In this document: positions 15,808-61,033 of the stretch, piece after piece
Layout of the letters: every line of letters starts with the position of its first letter
Numbering within the stretch: position 1 is the stretch's first letter
From: Acidimicrobiia bacterium
GTDB lineage: Bacteria > Actinomycetota > Acidimicrobiia > Spongiisociales > ZC4RG35
Direction of reading: 5' to 3'
Assembly (NCBI GenBank): GCA_965203555.1
Contig: CBDBCY010000004.1
Coordinates: 672,001-736,000 of the forward strand
Length of the DNA stretch: 64,000 nt
The notes under the pieces: model-generated
Told to the model about the DNA's origin: nothing
Seen by the model: the letters and a program-made list of their open reading frames with translations, nothing else
Databases searched by the model: none
Position numbers and translations under genes: made by a program

Positions 15808-17022
15808 TCATTTTCGTTGTTTGATCGGGCGTCGGCGCGTGGGTCGGCGTCGGCGGTTCCGGTACTTAGGTCGGGGTGGGCGTCCCCATTGGGTGGGTGG
15901 TGGGCGGAGCCGGTAGGCGCCGGTTGTAGTGCGTTCAACCTGCCAGTCATTGTCGTGGACCTTGTGGTGGCATCTGCTGCACAGAAGACACATGTTGTCC
16001 AGGTTCGTGAGACCCCCGTCTTGCCAGTGGACGATGTGATGCGCCTGGCACCAGGAGGCCTTGGCGCCGCACCCCACACAGTGTTTGTCCCGGGCGACCA
16101 GCGCGGCCCGCTGGGAACCGCTGGCCGTCCGCCGGGCCCGTCCCACATCCAACGGCACCGACGAACCCGCAAAGACCGCCGGGAGGACCTGAGCGTCACA
16201 GGCCAACTGCCGCAGGGTACGGGCGGGCAGGGGGGTTCCGTTCTCCAGGCGAGGGTTGCCCAACTGTTGGCTGACCGCGTCATAGTCGGCGATCAACAAC
16301 AGGCGCACCCCCTGGGAACGACCGTCCCCTTCCCGAGTAAGGAGCTTGGCTATGGCGTCGGCCATCCGCTGACCCGCAGTAGCCCGATTCCTGGGATCTT
16401 CCTTGTGCCAGAGTTGGTTCATCATGTGAGACACCGCCGTCTCGACCCGGGCGCCGGTGACCGGGTCGAACCTCCCATAAAGAACGGTCATTCCGTCGTC
16501 CTGGTCGGTGGTGATCTTCGCGAACCGGCGGGAACGCTGATGCTCCAACTTCGACACACCATCATCTTGGGAGCGTTGTTGTTCGTGTTTGCGTACCGTC
16601 CGGGCGAACTTGTCAGGAGACTGGGAACGGGCACCGTCCAACAACTCGTCCTCGACAATGGCTCCCCTCTGATTGGCACCCGCCAAAATACGGGCGTTGT
16701 CAGCAGAGATCTCTCCCTTTAGGAAACCCTCCCGTGTCTTGGGCAGCTCCTCCAACCCCCGGGCGGTCTCCACCTCCGACCGGGCCTTCCGACGGCCCAA
16801 CAGCCCGTCCTCCCGCAAAATCGTTTCCACCTTCTCCGTTCCCTGGCGGCGGCGCAACTCCGACACCGCCTCAGCGCGGACCGCGGCGGCCTGGTTCTGG
16901 ACACAGATGGTGGACTGTATACGCTGTTTCAGTTCTTCAACCGACGCCTCCACCACCGGCATGGTGGGCGCCAGCAACTTGGCCAGGTTGGCGGACCGCC
17001 GACTGTCGACTGCTTGTTTCAT
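15808..17022 (-). CDS. DUF222 (13E12-like) plus C-terminal HNH endonuclease, copy 1
   Basis: RQLACDA...LDVGRARR...QRAALVARDKHCVGC...CQAHHIVHWQDGGLTNLDNMCLLCSRCHHKVH; ATG lies 6 nt after a -10 hexamer (leaderless). Confidence 0.88.
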   Translation of the reverse strand: MKQAVDSRRSANLAKLLAPTMPVVEASVEELKQRIQSTICVQNQAAAVRAEAVSELRRRQGTEKVETILREDGLLGRRKARSEVETARGLEELPKTREGFLKGEISADNARILAGANQRGAIVEDELLDGARSQSPDKFARTVRKHEQQRSQDDGVSKLEHQRSRRFAKITTDQDDGMTVLYGRFDPVTGARVETAVSHMMNQLWHKEDPRNRATAGQRMADAIAKLLTREGDGRSQGVRLLLIADYDAVSQQLGNPRLENGTPLPARTLRQLACDAQVLPAVFAGSSVPLDVGRARRTASGSQRAALVARDKHCVGCGAKASWCQAHHIVHWQDGGLTNLDNMCLLCSRCHHKVHDNDWQVERTTTGAYRLRPPPTQWGRPPRPKYRNRRRRPTRRRPIKQRK

Positions 17023-17028
17023 GTGTAC

Positions 17029-17050
17029 AGTATGCAAAAGGGGTGTGACA
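17029..17050 (-). promoter_or_regulatory. RecA-NDp/PafBC-like promoter of DUF222-HNH copy 1
   Basis: TGTCAC-N10-CATACT-N6-ATG. Confidence 0.6.
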
Positions 17051-17441
17051 AAACATCGTGCATATCACTAAATTGTGAAAACAAACACTAAAACTTTCGC
17101 AACATCCACCTCATAGCTCGGTCGCTATCGAAAACACCCGACCCACGAGCGCTTGGTGACAGAAACCGGCCTCCCGGCCGGTCCACGTTCCTCGCTCTCA
17201 TCACCTCCACCTCATCAGCGGCACCCTACATAATGTGAACACGCCCTGTCACCCTTAGAGGGCCGCGCGGTTAGGGAGATCGCGATTGCCGCCCTCCAGC
17301 ACCCTGAACCATGCCTGTTCCGCAAAATACCTGGTCAACATCATGAACCGTCAAACCCCCCAAAGACTACGTTTTCGCAGGTCAGCACCTACCCACGCGA
17401 CCCCTAAGGATATGTCCAGATCGGGGCAGGGTAGCGCCGTC

Positions 17442-27416: not shown

Positions 27417-27917
27417 TCAGTGACCGCCCCGTTTGACGCCGCCGTACTTCATCCGGGTGTCGCTCATGGCCGCGGCCCGGATGGTGTCGTCGCGGATACC
27501 CGCATCCACCACCTCTCCTATGAACAGAGTGTGCGTTCCCATATCCCAGGCGTATCGAACCTGGCAGTCCATGTAGGCGATGGCGTCCTCGAAGACGGGC
27601 GCTCCGGTCTTTCCGATCCTTACCGGGCGGTCATTGAGGGTCATACCTCTCCGTACGGCCGGTTTCGAGAATTTTACGAACACCCGCTTGTCGGCTGGAT
27701 CCCACAAGTTGACCGTGAAACTCCCTCCTGCACTGATCAGCCGATGGGTTACCGCGCTGTTGTCGACCCCGATACCGATCAGAACCGGTTCCATGGACAG
27801 TTGGGTGATCCAGGAGGTGGTCATTCCGTTCCAGGTCTCACCCGAGGCGGATCCCACCAGAGCCAGTGCATTGGGAATCTTCCAAGTGACCTTGTTTAGC
27901 AGTTGGTTTGAAAGCAT
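27417..27917 (-). CDS. Flavin reductase-like FMN-binding protein
   Basis: NGMTTSWITQLSMEP, GAPV...CQV...GTHTLFIGEV. Confidence 0.87.
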   Translation of the reverse strand: MLSNQLLNKVTWKIPNALALVGSASGETWNGMTTSWITQLSMEPVLIGIGVDNSAVTHRLISAGGSFTVNLWDPADKRVFVKFSKPAVRRGMTLNDRPVRIGKTGAPVFEDAIAYMDCQVRYAWDMGTHTLFIGEVVDAGIRDDTIRAAAMSDTRMKYGGVKRGGH

Positions 27918-27937
27918 GTGTTGTATTCTGGCAGACT

Positions 27938-28423
27938 GTGCGGGTTTTGGTTTGCACTTCGGGTGTGCTTCAGGCACCGCCGGTCATCGATATTTGTGCT
28001 TCACTGGTGGGCGAAAGAGGAAAAGTTGTGATCCTCACGGTGGTCCAGGTACCCCGATCCCTGCTCAGCAAGTTCCGGCGCAAGCCACGCTCCTTCCTTT
28101 TCGAAACCCCCGAGGAGAATCCCCACCACGCCTCGGCTGAAGAGGAAGACTACATCCGCGAGCGTGGAGAGCGGGCGGTAGCCACCCTGGCAAGCGGTTT
28201 CCGGGCGGCGGGGATCGACCCGGAACTGTCCTATGTGGCCGGCCACGACTTGGCGGGGGCGATCGTTGCCCAAGCCGAGAAGATGCATGCCGACCTCATC
28301 GTCATGGGCGCCACCCGCCAGTTCTTCGAACCCGACGTGTGGTCGTCGGTGACCGCCCGGGTCAGCCGAATCTGCGAACGTCCCCTGCTGCTGATGCCCA
28401 CCAAAGGCCGCAATCCACCTTAA
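27938..28423 (+). CDS. Universal stress protein
   Basis: RVLVCTSG start, AIVAQAEKMHADLIVMGA, SSVTARV...PLLL. Confidence 0.8.
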   Translation: MRVLVCTSGVLQAPPVIDICASLVGERGKVVILTVVQVPRSLLSKFRRKPRSFLFETPEENPHHASAEEEDYIRERGERAVATLASGFRAAGIDPELSYVAGHDLAGAIVAQAEKMHADLIVMGATRQFFEPDVWSSVTARVSRICERPLLLMPTKGRNPP

Positions 28424-28499
28424 GACATTCTCGGCCCCGACGTCGACCGGGGACAACACCTGCCAAAGCCCAAAGGTCAGGGGCACCGCTGCGACCGCC

Positions 28500-28776
28500 G
28501 TCCTCTTAATTTTGGGATTCCCTCCCGACCCGCCGCCTCCTTGCCACCGCCGAAGTCCGGATGCGTGCAGGACTATCCGAAACCGAAGGTTCTGTCGTCG
28601 GCCAGCAGCCCTGTCTCGGGGAAAGACGGTTGAGATTCTTCTCCCCGAAACCAGGGCCATCTGATGAGGGCGGTCCGGACCGCACACCACATGTTTGTCT
28701 ATCCAATATGCGATGCCCCTGGGACAAAGACAAGGATTTCCAATGGTTTCGAAGGAGGATTTTTCGCGACTCTCTC
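28500..28776 (-). repeat. Dispersed non-coding promoter plus structured RNA element, copy A
   Basis: Colinear similarity to 59386-59680 across its length; TGTCCC-N10-CATATT at 28705-28726. Confidence 0.85.
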
Positions 28777-28804
28777 TTCTCTCAATCATTGCCAAAGGAG
28801 AAAT

Positions 28805-29605
28805 TCAGGCAACACCCCGGCCTTGATTGATCGCTTGGCGCATATCCGCCGCCGCCGCCGCCGCATCAGGAGCGGTGGTGATGGCCCGAGAACTGTTGAT
28901 GATCAATCCCCGTCCCCGGGAGTTGAGCCCCGCCTGCAATGCCTCTTGCAGATCGCCGCCCTGGGCGCCGACTCCGGGAGCCAGAAAAGTCATATCACCT
29001 GCCAGTCGACGAGCCACACGCAGATCGTCGGGACGGGTGGCGCCCATCACCAGCAAGCAGTTACCCAGCACGTTCCACTCCCGCGCAACCATACGCGCCA
29101 CCCGCTGCCAGAGGGGCTCTCCCTCCACCGTCACGGTCTGCAGATCATCGGCGCCCGGATTGGAGGTGCGGCACAGGATGATGCAGCCCCGGTCCGCCCG
29201 CTCCAGGAACGGGAGGAGGGCGTCTTTTCCCAACCACGGGTTGAGAGTTACCGCGTCGAATCCCAGTTGGTCGAAGAGAAACCGCGCATAAGCCTCGCTG
29301 GTGGAACCGATGTCGGCGCGTTTGGCGTCTCCGATCACCGGGACATCCGGATGGCGAGAAGCCAGATAATCCATGATCTTCTCCAAAGAGGCGATCCCGG
29401 CAGAGCCTCGCGCTTCGTAGAAGGCCAGATTGGGTTTGAAGGCGCAGACATAATGATGGGTCTGGGAAATCACCCGCCGACCCCACTCGAACAACGGGTC
29501 GCCGCCGTCGCCCAGCAACAACCCCGGGGCGGGGTCCAAACCCACACACAGCAGGCTTTGAGTATCTTCCATCCGAGCGTTGAGCCGCTCCTCGAACCCG
29601 CCCAT
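28805..29605 (-). CDS. pyrF: Orotidine-5'-phosphate decarboxylase (subfamily 2)
   Basis: LCVGLDP, FKPNLAFYE, DAKRADIGST, TSNPG, LAPGVGAQGG, NSSR. Confidence 0.95.
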   Translation of the reverse strand: MGGFEERLNARMEDTQSLLCVGLDPAPGLLLGDGGDPLFEWGRRVISQTHHYVCAFKPNLAFYEARGSAGIASLEKIMDYLASRHPDVPVIGDAKRADIGSTSEAYARFLFDQLGFDAVTLNPWLGKDALLPFLERADRGCIILCRTSNPGADDLQTVTVEGEPLWQRVARMVAREWNVLGNCLLVMGATRPDDLRVARRLAGDMTFLAPGVGAQGGDLQEALQAGLNSRGRGLIINSSRAITTAPDAAAAAADMRQAINQGRGVA

Positions 29606-43100: not shown

Positions 43101-44819
43101 TTATGCTGTCGAGAGGGTCCTGACCTGCGCCGAGAGGGACGCATAGATCTTGGCAACGGCCCTGTCGAGTTCGGGCGGCTTCGATTCCACCTCCCTGTAC
43201 AGAACCTTACGGTCCAGTTCGGGAATACGCTCTCCGCCTACCATCACACGGCGCGAAAAACCCTCACCGTCGAATTCCCAGGTGGCCACAATCAATAGAT
43301 CGAACGGGTCGTTGGCGGTTTTACCTTCGTAGCGGTTGAGCTCGTATCGAAAACGCAACTCGAACCGCCACCTCCCCGCCAGATCAAAGCCTTGCTCCAT
43401 CAGGGACTCCCTCATGACAGCCCAGTCCCCGGTCTGAACCCATCCCTGGAAAGAATCATGTGACGCGCGCCATACGTAGGAGAACGTGTCTCGTACGCCG
43501 CGGAAAAGGGGACTCAAAAGGGGCCCGCACGACGATACGATTTCCTTCACCAGCGGCCAGATGTGCCTGTAGTAGGCAGCGTCCAGGTTTCTGACAACTG
43601 ATCGGTCCGACTCGGTTTTCCTTTCCTTGGCCAAGGTGGCCAACTCCTGCTCTGCCTCGAATCGCTCCAGCATGCCTGCGAAGTCGGAGAGAGGCACGAC
43701 CTTGCACTCACTGCGGGACTGAGAGGCGAAACCCCCATAGACCAGGACCTTCCGGGTTACTCCGGGAACCAGGTCTCCCACCCTGTTGAGGGATCGAAAA
43801 AAATCGGATGAGACAGTGGCGCCCGACTTGATCTCGCTGGCCCAGATGCCGCGACCTGTCTCGTAGAAGAGGTCGCATTCCAGACCTCGGGCATCTCGAA
43901 AGAAAGAGAGATTGGATCGACGCCCTCGGTTGAATCGATGCTTGAGCGCTTCCACCACGACCGCGTTCTCGAACAGGGCTCCCCGCAACGGATGGGTGGA
44001 CATTTGCTCCACGAGCCTTATGCCGATCAGGTAACTGGCAAGCCCGACATCGTAGAAGTACAGCTTGGGCGACTTGATCAACCGCTTGCCGATGTTCACG
44101 TAGTATGGCTCCAACTGGAAGAGGATGTAGCTTCTTTCAAGTATCGAAAGCCATCCCCGCACGGTTGCGCGAGATACGCCGACATCAGAACTCAGCGAAC
44201 TGAGGTTGACAAGCTGGCCTACCCGTCCGGCGCAGATACGCACGAAACGCCGGAACGTGGACAGATCGCGAACCCCTCCGATGCGACGCACCTCGCGCTC
44301 GACGTAGTTTTCGAAGTAGTCCCCGAGCGCCTGCCTGGGATCGAGACCTTGATCGAAGATTCTCGGGTAAAACCCCGAATAGAGAATATCGTCGACTTTC
44401 TCGCCGGCTCCAGTCATTCGCCGTTCTGCCAAGGAGAACGGAAGAAGACGGAGAAGGGCCGTCCTGCCGGCCAGCGATTGACTGACCGTGTCGGAGAACC
44501 TGAACTGTTCACTTCCCGTCAACACGTAAAGTCCGTTACGGCCTTTCTCATCGGCAAGCACCTGCAAATAGGACAGAAGATCCGGAACATGTTGGACCTC
44601 ATCCAGAATTGCTCCTTCCCCCAGATGCGCGAGAAAGCCTCGAGGATCGGATTCAGCGAAGTCCCGCTGATCGGGGGCTTCGAGATTGGCGTATCCGAGG
44701 CCGGGAAAAGTTGAACGGCAAAGGGTGGTCTTTCCCGATTGGCGAGGGCCTGTGACAGTGACAAAAGGATACTGCCGGAATAGCCGGAGCAAGCAGGGGA
44801 CCATCTCACGCTCAATCAT
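43101..44819 (-). CDS. AAA_14 plus DUF4143 ATP-binding protein with extra C-terminal domain
   Basis: GPRQSGKTT, ILDEVQ, LTGS, LAGR, KSPKLYFYDVG, GALFEN, ECD...EIK; about 180 extra C-terminal aa. Confidence 0.88.
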   Translation of the reverse strand: MIEREMVPCLLRLFRQYPFVTVTGPRQSGKTTLCRSTFPGLGYANLEAPDQRDFAESDPRGFLAHLGEGAILDEVQHVPDLLSYLQVLADEKGRNGLYVLTGSEQFRFSDTVSQSLAGRTALLRLLPFSLAERRMTGAGEKVDDILYSGFYPRIFDQGLDPRQALGDYFENYVEREVRRIGGVRDLSTFRRFVRICAGRVGQLVNLSSLSSDVGVSRATVRGWLSILERSYILFQLEPYYVNIGKRLIKSPKLYFYDVGLASYLIGIRLVEQMSTHPLRGALFENAVVVEALKHRFNRGRRSNLSFFRDARGLECDLFYETGRGIWASEIKSGATVSSDFFRSLNRVGDLVPGVTRKVLVYGGFASQSRSECKVVPLSDFAGMLERFEAEQELATLAKERKTESDRSVVRNLDAAYYRHIWPLVKEIVSSCGPLLSPLFRGVRDTFSYVWRASHDSFQGWVQTGDWAVMRESLMEQGFDLAGRWRFELRFRYELNRYEGKTANDPFDLLIVATWEFDGEGFSRRVMVGGERIPELDRKVLYREVESKPPELDRAVAKIYASLSAQVRTLSTA

Positions 44820-45006
44820 TTACTGTCCATTTATACGCAACCATATGCAAAATGGAAAGTACTAACTGCATATTGCACAGAAATACTAGATGGATTGGCC
44901 GTAAAAACGGCTAGGAGTCTGACGGACCGGATCGGATTCGTCTGCCCAGCACGCAGGGGACTTCCCGGTGAGACCCCATGCCCAGTAATCAGACCCGGGC
45001 TGGAGT

Positions 45007-46605
45007 CTACGATCCTGAGCCGGCCGTCCTCAACAGTTCACGGGCTGCGTCCCGCCCGGAGACGTTGTCCGGGTCGCCGGACATCATCCGGGTCAGCTCG
45101 GCCACTCGGTCCTCTCCGCCGACCAGCCGTAACGACGCCGAGGGCCCCTCCCGCTCGATGACCCAGTGCTGGCCCGCAAACGCCGCCACCGAGGCCAGGT
45201 GAGTGACGCACAGCACCTGCGCTTCCCGGGAAACCGCCGCCAGCTTCCGCCCCAACGCCAGGGCAACCGCACCGCCCAGACCGGCATCCACCTCGTCGAA
45301 GACCATCGTCGACGCCGAGCCACTGCCGGTTGCCAATCGAAGCGCAAGCACCAGTCTGCTCAGTTCGCCACCCGAGGCGACCCGAGCCACTTCGCCCGGC
45401 GAGAGCCGCTCATCCGAAGAGAACAGCAGACGGATCCGATCGCACCCGTGGGCGGCCGGCGGTGATTCCGAGACCTCAAAGCGCAGCACGGGATTGCCGA
45501 AACCCAGTTCTCGAAGATGTTGCAGTGCAATCTTGGCCAGTTGCCTACCTGCCCTTCGTCGGGCTTCCGACAGGGCCTTTCCCCATCGCAGAACCTGCCG
45601 GTCGGCCTCTGTCAGAGCCGACTCCAGCTCGTCGGCTGTCTCCAACAGTTCCCGGATCTCTTCTCTACGAGTCCTCGCCCGTGCGCCGAACTCCAACACC
45701 TCTGCCAGGGTGGACCCGTATTTGCGGCGCAGATTGCCCAGCAGCGCCAGGCGCTGTTCCAATTCCTCCAGCGTCCCGAAGTCCGAGTCAAGGTCCTCCC
45801 CCGCACCGTCCAACTGGTAGGCGGTTTCTTCCATGAGTTGTTCCACGGAGTCAACCACCGACATGAGTTCATGAAGTTCCGGGTCGAGTCTCAGCGCCGC
45901 GTTCAATTCACCTGAAGTACCCGACAGGGCCTCCCGGGCCGCTGCCAGTCCTTCCCCCGCTTTGCTGAGGTGACCTCGCAGGGCCTCCCGGTTGCGAAGC
46001 CGTCGGGCTTCGATAATGAGCCGTTGATCTTCATCCGGAGAGAACCCCGCCCTCTCTATCTCCCTGGCTTGGAAGGAGACCATATCCAGTTCCCGCTCCA
46101 AAGCGGCCCTGCCTCCTCCCAGCGCCGAACGAATGCCTTCCAACCTGCGCTTCTCTTCCCAGCTTCTTCGATATGACTCATATGTCTCCGTGACACCGTC
46201 ATCCAAAGTCGCGTCCAGCATTTGCCGCACCTGGGCAGAGCGACGCAGGCGCAGATGGTCCTGCTGGCCGATAATTTCCACCACGTCGCCGATCTTCTCG
46301 GACAGGAATGCGGCAGAAACCACCATCCCGTCCAGATATCCCCGGCTTCTCCCCTTCTTGGGGATCTTGCGAGTGGCGCCCACCTCCTCACCGTTCACCA
46401 CCCACCGGCCTCCCACCACCGCCTCATCCCCAAACGGTCCCACCGCCCGGGAGTCGGCAGGTTCTCCCATCAGCAACCGCAAAGCGCCAAGCAACAAGGT
46501 CTTGCCGGTTCCGGTCTCCCCGGTTATCACTACCAGCCCGTTCTGCGGCCGGAACTCCGCTTCCTCTATCACACCCAGGTTCTTGACGATCAGTTCGTCG
46601 AGCAT
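45007..46605 (-). CDS. recN: DNA repair protein RecN
   Basis: TGETGTGK, coiled coil, ASGGELSR, FDEVDAG, VTHL. Confidence 0.93.
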   Translation of the reverse strand: MLDELIVKNLGVIEEAEFRPQNGLVVITGETGTGKTLLLGALRLLMGEPADSRAVGPFGDEAVVGGRWVVNGEEVGATRKIPKKGRSRGYLDGMVVSAAFLSEKIGDVVEIIGQQDHLRLRRSAQVRQMLDATLDDGVTETYESYRRSWEEKRRLEGIRSALGGGRAALERELDMVSFQAREIERAGFSPDEDQRLIIEARRLRNREALRGHLSKAGEGLAAAREALSGTSGELNAALRLDPELHELMSVVDSVEQLMEETAYQLDGAGEDLDSDFGTLEELEQRLALLGNLRRKYGSTLAEVLEFGARARTRREEIRELLETADELESALTEADRQVLRWGKALSEARRRAGRQLAKIALQHLRELGFGNPVLRFEVSESPPAAHGCDRIRLLFSSDERLSPGEVARVASGGELSRLVLALRLATGSGSASTMVFDEVDAGLGGAVALALGRKLAAVSREAQVLCVTHLASVAAFAGQHWVIEREGPSASLRLVGGEDRVAELTRMMSGDPDNVSGRDAARELLRTAGSGS

Positions 46606-46609
46606 CGAC

Positions 46610-47407
46610 TCACAATCCAAACCGCTCGATCACGATGGTGGAAAAAACGATCTGCTCGAACGCCACAAACATCACCGGACGTGGTCCCCGACGCACGACC
46701 ACCTCTTCACCCATACCCAAAGAGGCGGTGTTGCGACCGTCCACCGAGACCTGAACACCCCGGTCGCGGGCCACCCGAAAACGGATCACCGACTCCGGGG
46801 AGAGCACCAGCGCCCGAGAGAAGAGCGAATGGGGCGCCACCGGAGTCATCACCAACGCCTCCACGCGGTTGTCAAGCAGGGGTCCTCCCGCCGAGAAACT
46901 GTAGGCGGTGGAGCCGGTGGGAGTGGAGATCACCACTCCATCCGCCCGATAGGAGAGCATCGGTTCGGAGTCGACTTCCACCTGTAGTTCGATCAGACGC
47001 TGGCTGTCTATCTTCTCCACCACCACATCGTTCACCCCCACATCGGTGAGGCCGTCCAGTTCTGCCATCACTGTCATCCGGGGAACCAATCGATAGTGAC
47101 CTTTCTCCAGAAGGTCGAGCGTCTCGGTGAGATGGCAAGGATCGGCAGCCGCCAGGAAACCAAGCGTCCCCAGATTGAATCCCAGCACCGGCTGGTTGGC
47201 CGCCAACGCCAAACTCACGGCCCTCAGCATGGTCCCGTCCCCGCCGGTGGCGATCACCATCTCGAGCGGCAGATCGGGAGAAAGATCAACTCCGTCCTTC
47301 CCGTCCACCCACACTGTCCACCCCCGGTTTCCGGCCTCGGTCACCAATCGGTCCGTGAATTCCAATGCTTCAGATCGTACCCGGTTGGGCACCACTCCCA
47401 CTCTCAT
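46610..47407 (-). CDS. nadK: NAD kinase
   Basis: GGDGT, NLGTLGFL, DGVVISTPTGSTAYSFSAGGP. Confidence 0.95.
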   Translation of the reverse strand: MRVGVVPNRVRSEALEFTDRLVTEAGNRGWTVWVDGKDGVDLSPDLPLEMVIATGGDGTMLRAVSLALAANQPVLGFNLGTLGFLAAADPCHLTETLDLLEKGHYRLVPRMTVMAELDGLTDVGVNDVVVEKIDSQRLIELQVEVDSEPMLSYRADGVVISTPTGSTAYSFSAGGPLLDNRVEALVMTPVAPHSLFSRALVLSPESVIRFRVARDRGVQVSVDGRNTASLGMGEEVVVRRGPRPVMFVAFEQIVFSTIVIERFGL

Positions 47408-48168
47408 TGCTCCTCCCATCCTTCCTTTTGCTCTGCTCCCTTCACGGACCATATGAAGAACTCCCGGTTTCCAGACTTGGCGCCCACCAAGGGGGAGACG
47501 ACCACCCGCCGGGAACCGAGGCCCGTCTCCTTCAAACAGGAACCCACCTTGCGGATAACCTGTGAATGAACCATCGGATCTTTAACCACTCCTCTTTTTC
47601 CGACCAAACGCCGACCCGCCTCGAATTGGGGTTTCACGAGCGTCAAACAGTCTGCTCCCTCCTTGGCCAATTCGCTCAGACGGCCAGCCACCGCACACAA
47701 CGAGATAAAGGATAGGTCGGCCACCAATATATCGAACAGTCCCAGATCGGATGATTTCACATACCTCAAGTTGGTCCGGTCCCGCACCTCCACCCGGGGA
47801 TCTCGAGCGAGCCGGGGATGAAGTTGTCCGTATCCCACGTCCAGGGCAGTCACCCACCCCGCCCCCCGCTGCAACAGTACGTCGGTAAAGCCGCCGGTCG
47901 AAGCCCCGGCATCAAGGCACCGCTTCCCGTCAGGACTCACTCCCAGTACCTCCAAGGCATGGTCGAGTTTCTCGCCGCCCCGGGAGACGAAGCGAGGACC
48001 GGCGGAACCAAGCATGATCGCCGTGGCAGTCCCCACCAGGGTGGCGGGCCGGGGCGCCAGGACCCCCTCCACCCGCACCTCACCGGCAGTGATCAAACGC
48101 TGTGCTTCGGTGCGACTTCGGGCCTGTCCTCTCTCCACCAGTTCCTGGTCCAGCCGTCGCCGCTTCAG
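47404..48168 (-). CDS. tlyA: TlyA rRNA 2'-O-methyltransferase (probable CTG start)
   Basis: S4 start KRRRLDQELVERG, FVSRGGEKL, DAGASTGGFTD, DLSFIS, LVKPQFE, GNREF. Confidence 0.92.
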   Translation of the reverse strand: MKRRRLDQELVERGQARSRTEAQRLITAGEVRVEGVLAPRPATLVGTATAIMLGSAGPRFVSRGGEKLDHALEVLGVSPDGKRCLDAGASTGGFTDVLLQRGAGWVTALDVGYGQLHPRLARDPRVEVRDRTNLRYVKSSDLGLFDILVADLSFISLCAVAGRLSELAKEGADCLTLVKPQFEAGRRLVGKRGVVKDPMVHSQVIRKVGSCLKETGLGSRRVVVSPLVGAKSGNREFFIWSVKGAEQKEGWEEQ

Positions 48169-48362
48169 CTTTTCTTCCCTTCCTTTCCCTCCAGCAGATC
48201 CTCCAGCAAGTCAGCCAGTTGTTCGGCGGGCGTCAGGGAGTCGGCGCCGGTGGCATCTTCCAGTTCGCCCAGTAGCCGGCGCGCTTCTTCCAAGCGGGGA
48301 TCGGGCCGGTCGACCGCCGCCCTGTCGGCGCTGTTACCCACTGGTGGCGGATTGTCTTTCAC
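48165..48362 (-). CDS. Small acidic hypothetical protein coupled to tlyA
   Basis: CATAAT just upstream of the GTG; stop overlaps the tlyA start. Confidence 0.55.
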   Translation of the reverse strand: MKDNPPPVGNSADRAAVDRPDPRLEEARRLLGELEDATGADSLTPAEQLADLLEDLLEGKEGKKS

Positions 48363-48413
48363 CTCCCTGATTATGGCAACGCCTGCCCGGTCATCACCAC
48401 CTGATAATCCCCT

Positions 48414-49250
48414 TCACCCATCCGGCGCCCACCACAGAGTGGCGAACGATCGTGGGCCCTCCTCCACATAGAGACGGTTGCCTCGTGGCACTACGAATTC
48501 TTCCAGCAGCGGACGGAGTTCTTCCCTTCTGGCCCGCGGCGTCACCACTCTCTTTCCGTAGTAATCCAGTATCTCCCGCCAACTCAGGAACCACAGGTCC
48601 GGCGCCCGTTCCCATCGCACCACCCCCACCTCGGCGCCCAATTCGGTCACGACCACTTCCACCAGATCCTCCACGGAAGGACCGTCGGGCCGATCCAAGT
48701 CGTGGATGGCCCGATAGAGATAGTTCATCTTCGTCCAGGGGTGGACATCGGTCATCTCCACCACCACCCCGCGGCGGCAACGCCCGTCCAAACCTCTGAT
48801 GAACGGCGCTATGTCGGCGACGTCGTACACCACATGGCTGGACAGCACCACATCGGCCACAGGAGTGCGAGTCGCAACTGCAGGCCAGGCCCCCACCACC
48901 ACTTCCACCTCCAGTCCCTCGGCGCTTACCTCCTCTTGCAGACCGGCCGCCATTCCGGGATTCTTCTCCACCGCCGTCACCTGGTGTCCGGCTCGGGCGT
49001 AGGGAAGGCAACTGCGGCCCGTGCCCGCCCCCACATCGATCAGCGTCCCGTCGGCACCCAGCATTCTCGAGACCAACGACGTGGTCGGGGTGGTCTCCTG
49101 CCGGGAGCGACTCTCCTGGGTCCTTCTCCTCCACAACTCCGCCGGCCATCCATAGGGGGACTCCTCCGCCTGCTCCATGAGCCGTTCGGGAATGGCCCAG
49201 GACTCCAACTCCGCCTTCCATCGGGCAGCAGGGGCGTCGGAGTAAGCCAT
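48414..49250 (-). CDS. Class I SAM-dependent methyltransferase
   Basis: LIDVGAGTG, VTAVE, ADVVLSSHVVY. Confidence 0.85.
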   Translation of the reverse strand: MAYSDAPAARWKAELESWAIPERLMEQAEESPYGWPAELWRRRTQESRSRQETTPTTSLVSRMLGADGTLIDVGAGTGRSCLPYARAGHQVTAVEKNPGMAAGLQEEVSAEGLEVEVVVGAWPAVATRTPVADVVLSSHVVYDVADIAPFIRGLDGRCRRGVVVEMTDVHPWTKMNYLYRAIHDLDRPDGPSVEDLVEVVVTELGAEVGVVRWERAPDLWFLSWREILDYYGKRVVTPRARREELRPLLEEFVVPRGNRLYVEEGPRSFATLWWAPDG

Positions 49251-49258
49251 GCGCCGCT

Positions 49259-50116
49259 CTAGGCAGGACGCTCCCCGCATCCCGCGAACAGATCAACCTC
49301 CCGGTGTGGAGATTCCACCCTGCTGAAGACCCGCAGGAAGGTCTCCTTTCCCACTATCTCGGGCAGCATTTCCTCGGATACCGACAGCCACGACCAGTCG
49401 GTCGGCACCTGGCTGCGGTGGGCCTGCAGGGCCTTGATCTTGGTGGTGATCCGGTCGCGGACATCCACCGTGGCAGTGACATCCTCGTCGGGGGTGCCTG
49501 CGTAGCGGGCCCGCTCCAGATCCTCTTCGGTGATATCTCCCCGCTCGAACTGGATCTTGGCGTAGTTGACGATCCTGCTCCTCGGCCAGACCGACCAGTA
49601 GAGCTTCACCGGCTCCCACAACCGCTCGCCGTCCTCCAGCGGGAAACGCCCCAGATCGGAGGCGCCGAAAAAGGCGGCGGTTCCCACCCGGTGGACATTG
49701 ATGTGGTCAGGGTGACCGTATCCGCCGAAGGGATCGTATACCGTCATCACCTCCGGCCGGTATTTGCGGATCAACCGCACCATCCGGCCCACGGCGTCCA
49801 TGAAATCAGCTTGCCAGAAGCAATCGGGATGGGAGTTCGCCTCGGTTCCCATCATCCCCGAGTCGCGGTAACCCAACCAGGCGTGATTGTCCACTCCCAG
49901 GATGGAAAGAGCGTTGGCCAGTTCTTCCGCTCTAACCTCCACTAGCCGGGCCGAAATCTCTTCAGGGTTCAGGTAATTGTGCACCTCCCCCTCGGCGCCG
50001 TCGGTGGCGGTAACCACCACCACCTGCTCACCCGCCTCCGCATACATGCTCAGCACACCACCGGTGGAGAGCACTTCGTCATCAGGATGGGCATGGAAAG
50101 CCAAAAGTCCGGGCAC
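49259..50116 (-). CDS. PIG-L family deacetylase (MshB/Mca-like)
   Basis: HAHPDDE, YRDSGMMG, GGYGHPDH, AHRSQ. Confidence 0.88.
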   Translation of the reverse strand: MPGLLAFHAHPDDEVLSTGGVLSMYAEAGEQVVVVTATDGAEGEVHNYLNPEEISARLVEVRAEELANALSILGVDNHAWLGYRDSGMMGTEANSHPDCFWQADFMDAVGRMVRLIRKYRPEVMTVYDPFGGYGHPDHINVHRVGTAAFFGASDLGRFPLEDGERLWEPVKLYWSVWPRSRIVNYAKIQFERGDITEEDLERARYAGTPDEDVTATVDVRDRITTKIKALQAHRSQVPTDWSWLSVSEEMLPEIVGKETFLRVFSRVESPHREVDLFAGCGERPA

Positions 50117-50256
50117 GCCTGCCCACAATAGCACCGCTGCGACTCTTGAAAGTCTATGGGCCGATCATGCAGTCGAGGGAACTTCGGTCCCACTCTCGAG
50201 TCGGATCGGAAGCATTCCTTCATCAAGCCTGTAAAATATCCACCATAGCTGACACG

Positions 50257-52335
50257 ATGTACCAGGTTCTTCGACCCGATGGGACTGTTGCCCTGCCTGA
50301 GGTAGCCGAGAGCTACTCGCCGGAGGTTCTCAAGCGTATCTATTCGGAGATGGTGGCGGGGCGTTCTCTGGACCGGCGGATGATGTCGTTGCAGCGCCAG
50401 GGGCGGATGGGGACCTTTGCTCCAATGGAAGGCCAGGAGGCGATCTGTATCGGCGCCGCCTTGGCCTTGCAACCCGAGGACTGGGTCTTTCCCTCCTACC
50501 GGGAACATGCCACTGTCCTCAACAAGGGACTGCCGCTGCAAACTTTTCTGGAGTTCTACAGGGGTCACGGCTACGTCAACTGGGATGTCCGTCGATACCG
50601 TACCGGCCTGTACACCATTCCCATCTCCACCCATCTTCCCCATGCGGTGGGACAGGCCTATTACGCAAAGCTACGCGGTGAGAAAGGCATCACTTCGGTG
50701 TTCTTCGGAGACGGCGCCACCTCGGCGTCCGATTTCCATTCGGGAATGAACTTCGCGGGAGTTTGGAAGCTTCCGGTGGTGTTCATCTGTTCCAACAACC
50801 AGTACGCCATCTCGCTTCCCTTCAGTTCACAAACCGGGGCCGAGACCATTTCCCAGAAAGCCGTCGCCTACGGATTCGAGGGCATCCGGGTGGACGGGAT
50901 GGATCCTCTGGCTGTCCACTCCGCGGTTGCCGAAGCCGCGAGAAAGGCCCGCCAGGGCGGCGGTCCCACCCTGATCGAGGGAGTGACCTACCGGTTCGGA
51001 CCCCATGCCACCGCCGACGACCCCCGTCGGTACCGCTCCCCCGACGAAGAGCAATCGTGGCGGGCCTTCGATCCCTTGATCCGCATGCGCCGCCACCTGG
51101 AGAACACCGGCCTGTGGAACGACCGCTTGGAGAAAATGGCCCGGACCGAATTGGAAGCCGCCATGGACGAGGTCATGGCGGACATCGAGGCTCGGCCCCT
51201 TCCCAAAAGGGACCGGGCGATCACCCAGGTTTACCAGCGCATCCCCCGAGCCTTGGCCGAACAGTTCCACCAGTCGCAGAATGCGCGCGGCGAGCCTACC
51301 AGCGACTTCTCATCACTCATCTGGGAAGCCGGCCGAGAGATTCCTCCCGATCCCGAGCCGTCGGAAAGTTGGAATATGGCCCAGGCGATCAACGCCGCCT
51401 TGGGAGAGGCGATGGACCGTTATCCCGAGGCGATCATCCTGGGCGAGGACGTGGGACGCACCGGCGGGGTGTTCCGCATCACCGAGGATTTGCAGATCAA
51501 ATACGGGTCCGAGCGGGTGATCGACACCCCGCTGTGCGAGACGGGAATCGTGGGAACCGCCATAGGCATGGCCATCGCCGGCGCCCGACCGATCGTGGAG
51601 ATACAGTTCGACGGGTTCCTGTACAACTGCTTCGAGCAGATCGCCACCCATCTGTCCCGGATGCGCTATCGCACCCAGGGCGGCCTGGATCTGCCAATGG
51701 TGGTGCGCTTCCCCAACGGCGGCGGCATCAACGCCCACGAGTTCCACAACGAAAGCCCCGAGGCTCTTTTCTGCCACCTGCCCGGGATGGTGGTGATCTG
51801 CCCCTCCACCCCCACCGACGCCAAGGGTCTGCTGGCGGCGGCCATCGACTCCCCCGACCCGGTGATATTCGCCGAGCCCAAGGTGCTCTACCGGGCGGGA
51901 CGCGAATCGGTCCCCAGCCGCTACTACACGATTCCCATCGGCCGGGCCGCCATCCGGCAGACGGGAAGCGACGTGACGGTTGTCACCTACGGCGGCATGG
52001 TCCCGGTGGCGCTGCGGGCCGCCGATCAGTTGGCTGACGAGGCTTCGGTAGAAGTTATAGACTTGCGCACCCTCTACCCCTGGGACAAGGAGACGGTGCT
52101 CTCCTCGGTGACCCGCACCGGACGCCTGGTGGTAGTGCAGGAGCCTCCGCAGACGGCCGGGATGGCGGCCGAGATCGCCGCAACAGTGGCAGAGGAGGCT
52201 ATTTACGACCTGGCTGCCCCGGTGGTACGGGTTACCGGGTTCGACGCTCCCCTGCCCCCCTTCGCAATTGAGTCCTACGGCGTATTGGACGTGCCGGACG
52301 TGAAAGCCGGCATCATGCGGGCCTTGGCCGAATGA
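50257..52335 (+). CDS. Fused alpha-beta E1 of a 2-oxoacid (pyruvate or branched-chain) dehydrogenase; start uncertain
   Basis: GQEA, GDGATS...NN TPP motif, HATADDP, then GEDVG..GGVFR, DTPLCE, EIQF, all in one frame. Confidence 0.9.
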   Translation: MYQVLRPDGTVALPEVAESYSPEVLKRIYSEMVAGRSLDRRMMSLQRQGRMGTFAPMEGQEAICIGAALALQPEDWVFPSYREHATVLNKGLPLQTFLEFYRGHGYVNWDVRRYRTGLYTIPISTHLPHAVGQAYYAKLRGEKGITSVFFGDGATSASDFHSGMNFAGVWKLPVVFICSNNQYAISLPFSSQTGAETISQKAVAYGFEGIRVDGMDPLAVHSAVAEAARKARQGGGPTLIEGVTYRFGPHATADDPRRYRSPDEEQSWRAFDPLIRMRRHLENTGLWNDRLEKMARTELEAAMDEVMADIEARPLPKRDRAITQVYQRIPRALAEQFHQSQNARGEPTSDFSSLIWEAGREIPPDPEPSESWNMAQAINAALGEAMDRYPEAIILGEDVGRTGGVFRITEDLQIKYGSERVIDTPLCETGIVGTAIGMAIAGARPIVEIQFDGFLYNCFEQIATHLSRMRYRTQGGLDLPMVVRFPNGGGINAHEFHNESPEALFCHLPGMVVICPSTPTDAKGLLAAAIDSPDPVIFAEPKVLYRAGRESVPSRYYTIPIGRAAIRQTGSDVTVVTYGGMVPVALRAADQLADEASVEVIDLRTLYPWDKETVLSSVTRTGRLVVVQEPPQTAGMAAEIAATVAEEAIYDLAAPVVRVTGFDAPLPPFAIESYGVLDVPDVKAGIMRALAE

Positions 52336-52886
52336 GCGAACCACCTGTCGTCACGGTGTTCGGCTCGCATTCCGTAACACCCGAACAACCCGAATACGCC
52401 CAGGCCCACCAACTGGGACGGACCCTGGCAGAAGCGGGCGCCAATGTCGCAACCGGCGGCTACGGAGGCGTGATGGAAGCCGTTTCAGAGGGCGCGGCGG
52501 GGGGCGGAGCGGAGGTAATCGGCGTGACTGCGCCTCGGCTCTTCCCTCATCGGGCGGGCCCCAATCGGTTCGTCCGAACCGAGATTCCCGCCCACGACAT
52601 ATACGAACGCGACCGTTTCCTGCTCGAGATGGCCTCTGCTACCATCACCCTTCCCGGCAGCATTGGCACCATCGTCGAATTCGCCGAAGCATGGAGGGGG
52701 GCGTTGTTGGCGTCGCCGTCACGGCGTAATCCCAATGTAGCCGTTGGCGAGACCTTTCGGAGGTTGGCAGACGTGATGATCGAAGAGTTCAGCGTTCATC
52801 CCGAAGGTATGATCTGTGTCCCCACCGCCGAAGAGGCCGCCCGGGTAGTCCTGGAACACCTCGGATTGGAGAAACGCAGTGAGTGA
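52332..52886 (+). CDS. LOG-family (Rossmann-fold) protein
   Basis: VFGS, TGGYGGVMEA, LPGSIGTIVE (variant of PGGxGTxxE). Confidence 0.82.
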   Translation: MSEPPVVTVFGSHSVTPEQPEYAQAHQLGRTLAEAGANVATGGYGGVMEAVSEGAAGGGAEVIGVTAPRLFPHRAGPNRFVRTEIPAHDIYERDRFLLEMASATITLPGSIGTIVEFAEAWRGALLASPSRRNPNVAVGETFRRLADVMIEEFSVHPEGMICVPTAEEAARVVLEHLGLEKRSE

Positions 52887-53754
52887 AGTCGTCAGAGCGG
52901 CAGGCGGCGTGGTGTTCCGCTTCGCCCCCCGGGATGAGCCTGAGGTGCTGGTCATCCATCGTCCCCGCTATGACGACTGGTCACTGCCCAAGGGAAAGAA
53001 CGACCCCGGCGAATTCTCCCAAGACGCGGCGGTCCGGGAGGTATGGGAGGAGACCGGTTATCGATGCCGGGTGATCGCCCCGCTGGGAAACCAGGAATAC
53101 ATGTCACCGACCGGATGGAAACGGGTGGACTATTACGCCATGACATCCTGGTCGAAGACCGGTTTCCAACCGGGAGCGGAAGTGGACGAGATGCGATGGA
53201 TTCCGGTCTCCAAAGCCGGACTGCTCACCTACGCCCGCGATCGTAAACTGGTGAGAGCCGCCGACTACGAGACCCTGCAATCGACCAGAACCCTGTTCGT
53301 GGTTCGCCACGCGGCGGCTGGAAGCCGACAGCGATGGACTGACCCCGACCATATCCGGCCCCTGACCGACAAGGGCTGGCGGCAGGCGCGCTCCATAGCC
53401 GATCGCCTTGCCCCCGAAGGGATCGAAAGACTGGTGTCCAGTCCCTATGTGCGGTGTACCCAGACCCTCGAGCCGCTGGGAGAGATGCTGGGCATCCCGG
53501 TGGAGGAGCACCCGGCGCTGGCCGAGGGGGGCGGGATGGCGTCCACCATGCGACTCATCAAAGAACTTTCCGGGACCAACGTGGCACTATCGAGTCATGG
53601 AGATGTCATCCCTTCCGCCATCTTCCGTCTGGCCGAGGCCGGAACCTCCCTGTCGCATCCCATCTACTTCTGCAAGAAAGGCTCGATCTGGGCGGTGAAC
53701 GTGATCGGAGGAGAGCCTCTTTCCGCCCATTACGAGCCTCCGCCGAAGGTGTAG
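52879..53754 (+). CDS. NUDIX plus histidine phosphatase fusion (MutT1-like)
   Basis: HRPRYDDWSLPKGK...AVREVWEETG; then VRHA, SSPYVRC, SHG. Confidence 0.88.
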   Translation: MSEVVRAAGGVVFRFAPRDEPEVLVIHRPRYDDWSLPKGKNDPGEFSQDAAVREVWEETGYRCRVIAPLGNQEYMSPTGWKRVDYYAMTSWSKTGFQPGAEVDEMRWIPVSKAGLLTYARDRKLVRAADYETLQSTRTLFVVRHAAAGSRQRWTDPDHIRPLTDKGWRQARSIADRLAPEGIERLVSSPYVRCTQTLEPLGEMLGIPVEEHPALAEGGGMASTMRLIKELSGTNVALSSHGDVIPSAIFRLAEAGTSLSHPIYFCKKGSIWAVNVIGGEPLSAHYEPPPKV

Positions 53755-53851
53755 ACGAGCTGGACAGGACCGGATTGGGACCTGAGATCCCCAGATCAGC
53801 CACCCCTTGACGACCGCGGATTTCGGGTCAGGTATAATTTTGGAACGCTTT

Positions 53852-54529
53852 ATGGCCTCCGTACAGACCACACTCCAAAGAACCCCCCTCGGCCTGCAGA
53901 TCTCTCAAGAGTTGCGACGGCAGATTCTGTTCGGACACCTCCACCCCGGCACTCCCCTCACCCAGCAGGACCTGTGCGATCGGTTCGGCACCAGCCGCAT
54001 GCCGGTTCGCGATGCGATCAACATGCTGGTGATGGACGGGTTGGCCACCCGGCCCAACAACCGGGACGCGGTGGTGGCTGACATAACGCCCGAAGACATT
54101 TTGGATGCGTTCGAAGTGAACGCCCACCTTCACGCCCTGGCATCCGTGCGAGCCATCACCAGGGGAACGCCCGATGAACGCAGCCGATTGCTGAACATCC
54201 ACCGCGAGTTGGGAGATGCCGTAAAGAACGGAAACCTGCCCCGCAGCGCCGAATTGAACGGACGCTTCCATCGGCAGCTCAACCGCATGTCGCACTCCAA
54301 CCCGATCATCACCGCTTTGAAGCGGGTTACCGCCTTTGTCCCCGACGACTTCGTCAAGGAGGCACCGGATTACGCTATCCGAGGCTACGAGGAACACCAA
54401 TCGATCATGGACGCCTTTCTGCGCGGCGAGGAGGAAAAGCTCTATCGAATGATCACCCACCATGTGATGTCGGTCGCCGATGAACTGGTCGAAATGCTCT
54501 CCAATCACAGGCGTGAACCCGGTTCATAG
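53852..54529 (+). CDS. GntR (FCD) transcriptional regulator
   Basis: wHTH GTSRMPVRDA; FCD motifs NGRFH and EEH; TATAAT at 53833. Confidence 0.88.
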   Translation: MASVQTTLQRTPLGLQISQELRRQILFGHLHPGTPLTQQDLCDRFGTSRMPVRDAINMLVMDGLATRPNNRDAVVADITPEDILDAFEVNAHLHALASVRAITRGTPDERSRLLNIHRELGDAVKNGNLPRSAELNGRFHRQLNRMSHSNPIITALKRVTAFVPDDFVKEAPDYAIRGYEEHQSIMDAFLRGEEEKLYRMITHHVMSVADELVEMLSNHRREPGS

Positions 54530-54812
54530 CCCTCCGGCTCGATGCCTTCGAGGTGAAGGTCCACCTCCACGCTCTGGCGACTGCGCAAGCCCATAACACG
54601 GGGCGCCTCCGAGAAACGGGAGCGTCGGCAGAACCATCACGAGGAGGTGGCGCCCAACAATCGGTGACATACCCCCATACCAGCCTCAGGCGCTCAGGGA
54701 TAGATCAGGACAATTCCCCATAGGCCAACGGCTCGAGATGTCGGATAGTTAAGGCATGAGCAACATGCGGCCAATTACGCATTCCGCCGGTATCCGGCAA
54801 GAATCACTGATC

Positions 54813-55568
54813 ATGTCATCAACCGACCACACCTCTAGGTCCACTCACCCGGCGGTCCGGATGGTGGACGGCGTCAAGATCTACGGGGAGGGTGAGACCG
54901 CCGTCCGCGCCCTCAGAGGTATCTCCCTGAGCATCGAGCGGGGCCGTTTCACGGCCATCATGGGGCCTTCCGGATCGGGTAAGTCGACCCTGCTCCACAC
55001 CCTGGCCGGCCTGGACACCCTGGAAGAAGGGGAGGTGTTTATCGACGGGACCGCGCTCTCCACCCTCAAGGACCGAGAACTAACTCTCCTGCGGAGAGAG
55101 AAGGTGGGATTCGTCTTCCAGACCTTCAACCTGATCCCCACCCTCAACGCCTCCGAGAACATCCTGTTGCCTCTCTCCATCGCCCGGGAGGACCCCGAAC
55201 GCGACTGGTTCAACCAGATAGTGGAGACTCTGGGGCTGGGCGACCGCCTCAAGCATCTTCCCAGCCAACTCTCGGGCGGCCAGCAGCAGCGGGTGGCGGT
55301 GGCCCGGGCCTTGATGTCGCGTCCCATCATCGTCTGCGCCGACGAGCCGACCGGCAACCTCGACTCCCGAGCCTCCGATGAACTGCTGGGGTTTATCCGA
55401 GGCGCCGTGGACGAGATCGGCCAGACGATAGTGATGGTCACACACGACCCTCTGGTGGCGGCCTACGCCGACGAGGTGGTGTTTCTCGACGACGGTCTCA
55501 TCACCAGCCGAATGGCCGACCCCAACGCCGAGGCTATCTTCGACCATCTGAAGTCGCTGGGCGAATAG
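54813..55568 (+). CDS. ABC transporter ATPase (LolD/MacB-like)
   Basis: [28 protein letters not shown]. Confidence 0.93.
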
Positions 55569-58112: not shown

Positions 58113-58236
58113 GCAACCCTACCGACTTCCGAGCAAAGGCTTGGCTTCCCCCCGGTTGCCGCCTCGGAGTGGTCACCAGCCTTTCCCGCCATCTAATACT
58201 GTCAGTACCGACAGCGGCAACCTATAGTGGCACAAA

Positions 58237-59223: not shown

Positions 59224-59385
59224 CCGTACAGATCGGCAAGAATTCCGGTCAAGAAGACCCGATTTGCTGCCGCAAGCCCTGGGAACAGTCAACCATCACG
59301 TCAGGAGAATGGAGCGTTGGGAAACGATGTTGGACGGGTGGCTTGTGTGCGTTTGGTCGATCGCAGACCAAAACTTCGCCAGCCT

Positions 59386-59680: not shown

Positions 59681-59778
59681 TGCCGCGGTGCAAGAGTGGG
59701 AAAACCGGATGGCAGGGGTCCGGTGGCGGGTGGGGGATGGTGTCCCGGGTGGGAAGAGAGTCGGGGGAAGTGGTCTGT

Positions 59779-61026: not shown

Positions 61027-61033
61027 GCATACC

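Follow-up and report, generated by a model that had tools for sequence, protein, structure and literature searches.

Two intergenic gaps in the 64,000-nucleotide (nt) stretch of DNA analysed here, referred to throughout as the window, hold copies of an element that we read as a gene for a small non-coding RNA: a promoter of a putatively DNA-damage-responsive type, followed by a body of about 205 nt with five hairpins and a G-rich segment, the G-box. The host genome (G000; 3.42 Mb in four contigs, 62% G+C) is that of a sponge-associated Acidimicrobiia actinobacterium, and the window copies, A and B, would be paralogues in a family of about 47 members. Each copy is proposed to be a stand-alone RNA gene, induced by DNA damage through the activator PafBC and acting in trans through its G-box, a reading to which we assign a probability of roughly 60%.

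Copy A occupies window positions 28498–28770 on the minus strand and copy B positions 59393–59681 on the plus strand. Aligned pairwise with MAFFT (28460–28820, minus, against 59360–59720, plus), the two are colinear with 76% mean column identity; both gaps were found where a preliminary description of this DNA had placed them, and the sequence blocks that it listed recur in the order given. The likeness is far beyond chance, since nhmmer seeded with A and B retrieves 12 full-length copies from the host genome (E 1e-89 to 3e-8). Copy A is bounded by the stop codons of an OMP-decarboxylase gene (28805–29605, minus) and a convergent Usp gene (27908–28423, plus), and copy B lies between a PLP-enzyme gene (58237–59223, plus) and the stop of a convergent open reading frame (ORF) of the DUF222-HNH class (59779–61068, minus). 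Neither copy leads into an intact gene, as had been noted: A meets the 3′ end of the Usp gene and B the 3′ end of the DUF222-HNH gene. The statement that the element is present twice is right inside the window; genome-wide it is an undercount, covering two of the 12 members of what we call family-1 and two of about 47 units in total.

Promoter

Both copies carry TGTCNC, ten nt and CATATT (TGTCCC in copy A, TGTCTC in copy B), so that a GTC-containing −26 element stands exactly 10 nt from a −10 box of the form cANNNT, at a fixed distance and in a fixed orientation before the body of about 205 nt. The promoter of copy A, TTGTCCCA-N9-CATATT, spans 28705–28727 (minus), with the −26 TGTCCC at 28726–28721 and the −10 CATATT at 28710–28705, and predicts a start near 28698; that of copy B, TTGTCTCA-N9-CATATT, spans 59436–59458 (plus) and predicts a start near 59465. 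The in vivo consensus of PafBC-dependent promoters is tGTCgg(N10)tA(N3)T, with a strict GTC in the −26 element and no −35 box (PMC8635444). By its sequence, the putative promoter of the RNA units is of this PafBC type, also described as RecA-NDp or ‘sigma adaptation’. A promoter had been recognised in the preliminary description, and this much stands; that it is of the DNA-damage type was missed there.

The motif is rare by chance. The pattern TTGTCNCA-N9-YANNNT occurs four times in the window against 0.10 expected (100 shuffles), and the four sites are those of copy A, copy B and two DUF222-HNH genes. Across the genome, the strict form TGTCNC-N10-YANNNT precedes 31/47 members, compared with 17/5000 random windows of 190 nt, and six further members of the 47 have CGTC with a good −10 box. 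The same motif form precedes genes of the DNA-damage response. Upstream of recA (C4:820640–820900, minus strand) the sequence TTGTCACA-N9-TAGCTT, of the same form as the promoters of copies A and B, lies about 55 nt before the ATG, and a TCGAAC-N4-GTTCG palindrome of the LexA-box form is found farther upstream than this PafBC-type motif; dual LexA/PafBC-type control of recA is familiar from mycobacteria. The motif also precedes uvrB and lhr, and two adjacent WYL-domain ORFs in the genome have the form expected for pafB and pafC.

A second conserved feature, a TCGCGA-type box, lies about 40–65 nt 5′ of the unit promoters. That of copy A (GAGTCGCGAAAAA, 28764–28769, minus), identified by reading the sequence, is about 40 nt 5′ of the −26 element; that of copy B (GAGTCGCGAAGG, 59393–59398, plus) also marks where homology among the composites of RNA and HNH gene, described below, begins on the left. 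A G(A/G)GTCGCGA block is common to 8/12 family-1 copies and to the copies of congeners. Boxes of this type recur in the flanks generally, as TCGCGAAAA or TGTGAAAAA 5′ of RNA promoters, as a direct pair of TTTCGCGA boxes, spaced by about 20 nt, immediately 3′ of family-2 RNAs (the sister family, introduced below), and as T(T/C)GCGAAAGTTTT upstream of HNH promoters. They may represent an operator, an UP-like element or an insertion target. Separately, a PafBC-type motif (TTGTCACACC..TAACCT) was seen at C2:86581 (plus), directly before a 435-codon ORF starting MPRMTQTFRFPAK, whose product resembles, by eye only, a TnpB/OrfB-type transposon protein.

Structure of the predicted RNA

The body, of about 205 nt, starts near ACAAACAU and contains five hairpins, P1–P5. 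P1 is a two-part hairpin with an invariant GUCCGG tip; P2 is long and variable in sequence; P3 is CCGA..UCGG; and P4 is CGGNNAGGC-CUGC-GCCUNNCCG. A single-stranded linker leads from P4 to the G-box, which in family-1 reads GGNGGCGGCGGGUCGGGAGGG, and P5, a hairpin of three pairs (GGG-loop-CCC), lies 3′ of it. Many copies, in the host genome and in congeners, have AAUUAA and a second GGCGGCG after P5. The body of copy A (28498–28701, minus; C4:700498–700701) matches the covariance model R1, introduced below, from end to end (105.3 bits, E 4e-25), with P1 at approximately 28692–28664, P2 at 28659–28604, P3 at 28601–28583 and P4 at 28579–28557. Its G-box, GGAGGCGGCGGGTCGGGAGGG, is at 28540–28520 and its P5, GGG-AAU-CCC, at 28522–28514 (together 28514–28540); a conserved 3′ tail, AAAATTAAG..GGCGG (28481–28513, minus), lies outside the modelled part. 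Copy B (59462–59681, plus; C4:731462–731681) gives a full match to R1 of 140.5 bits (E 4.7e-34), within which the G-box is at 59640–59660 and P5 at 59657–59666. The hairpins proposed previously are real: P1 is the same, the former P2 is the tip of our P2, the former P3 is our P4, and GGG-GAAA-CCC is P5.

Plain MAFFT alignment with RNAalifold yielded P1 and some doubtful long-range pairs, since P2–P4 were misaligned. The structure was therefore written by hand on four well-aligned copies, with every pair checked; R1 was built from these and the remaining sequences were aligned to it. R1 retrieves all 12 family-1 copies of the host genome together with nine in three congeners. In the resulting alignment of 21 sequences (A5), 86.8% of cells are paired, compared with 29–51% when the 3′ partners are slid by 1–3 columns, both sides have changed in 33/49 pairs, and all five measures lie beyond what any of 500 shuffles attains. 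Taken on their own, the four syntenic sequences of the copy A locus give 79.6% paired cells against 26–52% when slid, with changes on both sides in 13/46 pairs. An alignment of 31 sequences from 14 assemblies (A8) gives 85.8% paired cells and changes on both sides in 31/49 pairs. Over the three alignments, at most one shuffle in 500 reaches any measure. The five hairpins have been kept by compensatory changes, for which the evidence is strong.

The G-box has the form (GGN)3–4 GGG NN GGG N GGG, with CCC after it. Every G of the box is invariant in the 47 members (the G positions of copy A being invariant in 12/12 of family-1), with no constraint on the single spacer letters and either three or four GGN units. 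This combination of fixed Gs, unconstrained spacers and differing GGN counts is the pattern that would be expected of a quadruplex or of a repeated protein-binding motif, and G4Hunter scores of at least 1.5 are obtained in 40/47 members. The structured element of the preliminary description is borne out, and the invariant G-box is an addition to it.

Family size and distribution

Family-1 was found in the host genome by BLAST and two rounds of nhmmer, which gave the 12 full-length copies mentioned above. A sister family, family-2, came to light through weaker, partial hits at the promoter and the first hairpin. Its units have the same promoter, likewise start with CAAACA, and resemble family-1 in the first hairpin (GGTCCG..CGGACC) and the G-rich end; 35 of them were detected with nhmmer (E<1e-6, >150 model positions). 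The total of about 47 units is interspersed through the genome, 25 in plus and 22 in minus orientation. A covariance model of family-2, R2, of which the automatic structure is doubtful and which was used as a detector only, matches 34 loci in the host genome and 25, 42 and 23 in the three congeners (G333, G336 and G369, respectively). Family-1, searched with its covariance model, is represented by six loci in G333, two in G336 and at least three in G369.

Beyond the genus (g1), R1 gave no matches in 48 genomes from 37 other genera of the same family, and R2 gave two weak partial matches in 39 genomes. A narrow G-box pattern, which fits only 4/47 host members, matched 18/401 genomes across the class; 17 loci in 14 genomes outside the genus were followed up from this pattern, and R1 did not confirm them; no conclusion here draws on one of these 14, the unpublished G254. 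When one genome per species was scanned with a pattern, 38 stretches emerged, 31 of which R1 confirmed, all in 14 assemblies of Acidimicrobiia type; of the seven that it rejected, five came from unrelated phyla, one from an Acidimicrobiia metagenome-assembled genome (L149) and one from an uncultured-bacterium metagenome-assembled genome (L162). Both families are confined to genus g1 in the samples searched.

No described RNA family accounts for the element. The whole window, searched with Rfam 15 at gathering score, gave a single tRNA, and a search at E≤1 of the 12 family-1 loci (37,771 bases) gave one tRNA, one chance match to a long non-coding RNA and nothing on the element; the families covered by both searches include HEARO, 6C, Ms1, 6S, raiA and the riboswitches. 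The earlier judgement that no known riboswitch could be recognised here, made from the letters, agrees with this result.

Coding potential and neighbouring genes

A coding function was considered for the body itself. One copy has a frame of 65 codons from the ATG that follows ACAAAC; this ATG, within ACAAACAUG, is missing in 4/12 family-1 copies, and insertions and deletions shift the frame among copies, so that neither frame nor start is kept and the candidate was rejected. The frame 3′ of copy A that had been likened to a signal peptide with a dead start codon fared no better, being unconserved in the three orthologues of that copy.

What lies downstream also varies. The 12 family-1 copies are followed by seven convergent DUF222-HNH genes (one of them degenerate), one convergent Usp gene and one tRNA, with unrelated genes or none for the rest, and no convincing co-directional gene start was found within about 150 nt of any of the 12. 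Most family-2 units stand behind the 3′ end of a gene read in the same direction, and of 18 examined at least 9 face a convergent gene. The tRNA is a long-arm tRNA gene about 130 nt downstream of the family-1 copy at C4:287289–287484 and on the same strand (C4:287076–287160; positions 1276–1360, minus, of locus L014).

The preliminary description had offered two possibilities, a new multicopy small RNA family of about 200 nt or the leader of secreted-protein genes since deleted. The second was rejected: there is no kept class of downstream gene, there are no co-directional starts, and the signal-peptide frame is not conserved. The first is supported by the lack of an Rfam match, a conserved predicted promoter suitably oriented and spaced, the lack of a kept frame and the compensatory changes, and is much enlarged here. 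A more general action in cis, in which the RNA would be the 5′ leader or riboswitch of a downstream gene, or would run antisense into a convergent gene and lower its expression after DNA damage, draws on the possibility of read-through where no terminator follows the RNA, on convergent genes that end about 50–150 nt beyond it (8/12 in family-1, and the family-2 examples just given), and on a GGAGG-like stretch after the G-box in some copies. We regard it as very unlikely. The downstream partners are unrelated to one another (Usp, DUF222-HNH, tRNA and various enzymes), no ORF start is kept after the element, the conserved part stops before the neighbour, no riboswitch of Rfam matches, and a structured, covarying body of 200 nt would be needless for antisense RNA made by read-through.

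Inheritance and turnover

Copy A is found in the same gap between pyrF and usp in all three congeners, so that it is present in 4/4 genomes, with flanks that are about 75–81% identical. It is, on this comparison of syntenic loci, an old and vertically kept locus. Other members come and go. When 14 family-2 loci of G333 were compared with G000, six were empty there with contiguous flanks (58–229 nt between them), one retained a remnant, at least two were filled and the rest were rearranged. No flanking repeats (terminal inverted repeats or target duplications) of ≥16 nt were found around copies A and B, and the flanks of the empty sites are only 75–80% identical, which makes their ends and any target duplications unreadable. 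One composite unit is flanked by 46-nt direct repeats 1787 bp apart.

Turnover of this kind could mean that the element is a small non-autonomous mobile DNA, like a miniature inverted-repeat transposable element, whose hairpins and G-box serve as single-strand or cruciform recognition sites in DNA and whose promoter and transcript are incidental. Such an element would account for the presence and absence of copies among congeners, including the six empty sites and the remnant, for about 47 copies lying almost always after gene ends, and for conserved TCGCGA-type boxes on both sides; the hairpins, moreover, are possible on either strand, and the wobble test of strand described below is mixed. 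It is nevertheless an unlikely explanation, since one class of regulated promoter at fixed distance and orientation in 31–37 of 47 members would be odd for a passenger, and since four species have kept copy A at a single site, with compensatory changes. Terminal inverted repeats and target duplications are not readable at copies A and B or at the empty sites, the mixed orientation of the copies is unlike that of single-strand movers, and no transposase lies beside the copies.

Association with DUF222-HNH genes

The gene that faces copy B tail to tail encodes a REP13E12-like protein with the Pfam domains DUF222 (E 2.9e-23) and HNH (E 1.6e-9). The mechanical ORF (59779–61068, 429 codons) contains, within its first codons, the PafBC-type promoter pattern TTGTCACA-N9-CATACT (61034–61056, minus), and the same block heads other HNH copies; the −10 box ends 7 nt before an in-frame ATG at 61026. 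Because the mechanical start at 61068 is upstream of the promoter, the mRNA is probably leaderless, or nearly so, and the gene would run from 61026 to 59779 (minus) and encode about 415 amino acids rather than 429. The second DUF222-HNH gene of the window (approximately 15883–17055, minus; C4:689055–687883 by tblastn, 76% identity to the copy-B protein) has a matching promoter pattern at 17029–17051 (minus) and no RNA copy beside it. In total, 27 DUF222-HNH loci are present in G000. The 3′ coding end of the copy-B gene contains a tandem duplication of 29/30 nt (59799–59857; positions 1821–1879 of locus L073) that doubles a basic tail (..RYPRKRRPN RRYPRKRRPT..).

Copy B is part of a 1.7-kb composite, an RNA gene facing an HNH gene, that occurs seven times in G000. 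In six of the seven, homology extends from the TCGCGA box to just past the HNH promoter, the seventh row being gapped at the left end. Genome-wide, an HNH gene lies within 300 nt of 11/47 RNA genes (7/12 in family-1, 4/35 in family-2), the four family-2 units adjoining theirs in three arrangements, and 36/47 RNA genes have no HNH neighbour. In the 14 other assemblies an HNH gene is within 400 nt of 6/31 family-1 copies, again in differing arrangements, and none was found within 1.5 kb of 11 family-1 loci in the three congeners. The counts of RNA genes to DUF222 genes are 44 (42 family-2 plus two family-1) to five in G336, 47 to 27 in G000 and 23 (family-2) to 16 in G369. At C4:1390730, an HNH gene has inserted next to an RNA gene whose syntenic counterpart in G333 has none beside it. 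The DUF222-HNH link and the size of the family escaped the preliminary description.

In one HNH subfamily (C4:135711, 1262540, 2092771, 2305454 and 2705667), the sequence after the stop codon includes a degraded likeness of the 3′ end of an RNA unit, in antisense (..CCCGTTTTTGCCACTCTTGATCC..GGGGTTTCTGG..), which suggests that the ancestor of this subfamily also had a tail-to-tail RNA gene. Another HNH subfamily has a conserved upstream block of about 130 nt with GGTGGGTCGGGTG.

Adjacency raises the possibility that the RNA is a working partner of the nuclease, whether as a guide or scaffold like an omega-RNA, as an antisense or antitoxin RNA restraining the nuclease mRNA, or as a homing mark formed by an R-loop or quadruplex at the transcribed G-box. 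Eleven RNA genes within 300 nt of an HNH gene compares with about 0.8 expected, by our own estimate, from the space taken up by 27 HNH genes; the 6/31 found elsewhere, adjacent pairs in G333 and G369, the shared promoter type and the insertion at C4:1390730 all point the same way. We nonetheless consider a partnership doubtful. Most RNA genes and most HNH genes lack each other, their copy numbers do not track (most plainly in G336), and the three arrangements (tail to tail, RNA then HNH, HNH then RNA) amount to no fixed, operon-like layout. A variable, single-stranded ‘guide’ stretch in a fixed terminal position is lacking in the RNA, the protein consists of DUF222 and HNH domains alone, RuvC being absent, the Rfam HEARO model is unmatched, and the seven family-1 composites stem from few events.

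Since copy numbers do not track and most RNA genes have no HNH neighbour, the RNA appears independent of the nuclease, and we take the link to reflect a selfish gene's preference for landing beside RNA genes; the RNA would have no need of the nuclease. In copy B, a DUF222-HNH gene would have landed beside an RNA gene and the pair would then have been copied, as a lineage-specific event. It is conceivable, if quite improbable, that the G-rich RNA, or its R-loop or quadruplex on DNA, made after DNA damage from about 47 promoters fired by PafBC, itself marks these loci as landing pads or cofactors, so that the nuclease homes beside them and spreads along. Were that so, it would be the first mechanism for REP13E12, and a form of RNA- or structure-directed homing unrelated to IscB and TnpB. 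The family, if expressed, would also offer a testable handle on where DUF222-HNH (REP13E12) selfish genes land.

Proposed function and its weighing

Under the reading that we prefer, that of stand-alone RNA genes, PafBC would sense DNA damage and switch on the RNA genes together with recA, uvrB, lhr and the DUF222-HNH genes, each RNA gene yielding a discrete sense RNA of perhaps 200–260 nt. The RNA would act in trans, its hairpin body serving as scaffold and its G-box as the working site, either as a quadruplex or as an unpaired G-rich strand to which a protein or a C/U-rich RNA would bind, and the many paralogues would sum to a high dose. That the RNA is made from the sense strand is well supported, mainly by the predicted promoter.

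Several results weigh against this reading. A scan for the plain sigma-70 consensus found no promoter at copy A or B, an absence that is expected for the PafBC class. The structural alignments were fitted to our own model, which biases the counts toward it; most P2 cells in A8 are gaps; and A8 overlaps A5, several of its rows scoring the same as rows from G333 and G336. Support for the strand is mixed, with G-U to A-C wobbles at 84:38 in A5 and 46:47 in A8; removing poorly paired columns gives 82:33 and 35:23, respectively, by a filter that itself favours G-U. The part 5′ of the G-box is more stable as its reverse complement in 39/49 sequences, likely an effect of C-rich composition. A terminator scan found no intrinsic terminator after copy A or B, the sole terminator-like site lying upstream of copy B (59391–59376, minus). 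The G-box is compatible with a quadruplex and unexceptional in a GC-rich genome, as 2782 windows of G000 reach a G4Hunter score of 1.5; both the quadruplex and the role in trans are inferred. The members, finally, appear to behave partly as mobile or easily lost DNA, judging from the empty sites.

A search of sequencing runs found the stretch in one RNA run (X1; as contigs, a small share) and in two runs of unrecorded kind. The X1 contigs (window 44001–64000) are those of a relative; one ends at 59413, before the copy B promoter, and none covers the RNA, which must also be set against our reading, with the proviso that these contigs are silent on starts, ends and strand and so uninformative on expression either way. 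At window positions 54673–56006, contig depth rises 30- to 80-fold in two runs that hold the organism, and many contigs continue into unlike sequence, as is typical of a conserved domain of ABC-ATPase type common to other organisms in a sample and not of a feature of the genome.

If the family is expressed, a small genome gives about 47 genes over to a single structured RNA whose G-rich end is invariant, and all of them are wired to the DNA-damage activator. If the proposal is true, an RNA arm would be added to the actinobacterial DNA-damage response, and the family would be a natural case in which to test whether bacterial RNAs work as quadruplexes or decoys. As a practical marker, it also accounts for many ‘empty’ intergenic gaps and assembly breaks in the genomes of sponge- and coral-associated Acidimicrobiia.

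Relation to known systems

The genes known to be driven by PafBC promoters encode DNA-repair proteins. In Mycobacterium and other Actinobacteria they have the same GTC in the −26 element, the same 10-nt spacing, a −10 box of the tANNNT type and no canonical −35 box (PMC8635444); the difference is in the −26 element, which here reads TGTCNCA and not tGTCgg. No multicopy non-coding RNA family driven by PafBC was found described in the full-text literature searched.

The REP13E12 repeat family was recognised with the first M. tuberculosis genome. The gene beside copy B resembles it in combining DUF222 with HNH, in being multicopy (27 loci) and in having a promoter of the RecA-NDp type. The 13E12 (DUF222-HNH) genes of M. 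tuberculosis are reported to carry RecA_NDp and LexA sites (PMC3381160), so that a PafBC-type promoter has a precedent on nuclease genes of this kind; for such a promoter at the head of a non-coding family, no description was found in the literature covered. The RNA element lies outside the described REP13E12 unit, occurs mostly without a nuclease gene both here and in congeners, and goes unmentioned in the passages of 13E12 papers covered; nor was an RNA partner of DUF222-HNH genes found in the literature within the same coverage.

HEARO is the omega-RNA of IscB. The present RNA is like it in being structured, multicopy, a few hundred nt long and often beside an HNH gene, sometimes upstream on the same strand. 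It differs in that Rfam gives no match, the nuclease is without RuvC, the orientation varies, the RNA has a regulated promoter of its own as predicted, and most copies are free of any nuclease.

Two further likenesses are of form only. The decoy RNAs CsrB and RsmZ present repeated GGN motifs on a structured scaffold, much as the G-box stands on the hairpin body; we know of no CsrA-type partner in Actinobacteria. At pilE of Neisseria, the promoter of a small RNA associated with a G-quadruplex drives transcription through a quadruplex-forming run of Gs, an arrangement that the order of promoter, body and G-box in copies A and B recalls.

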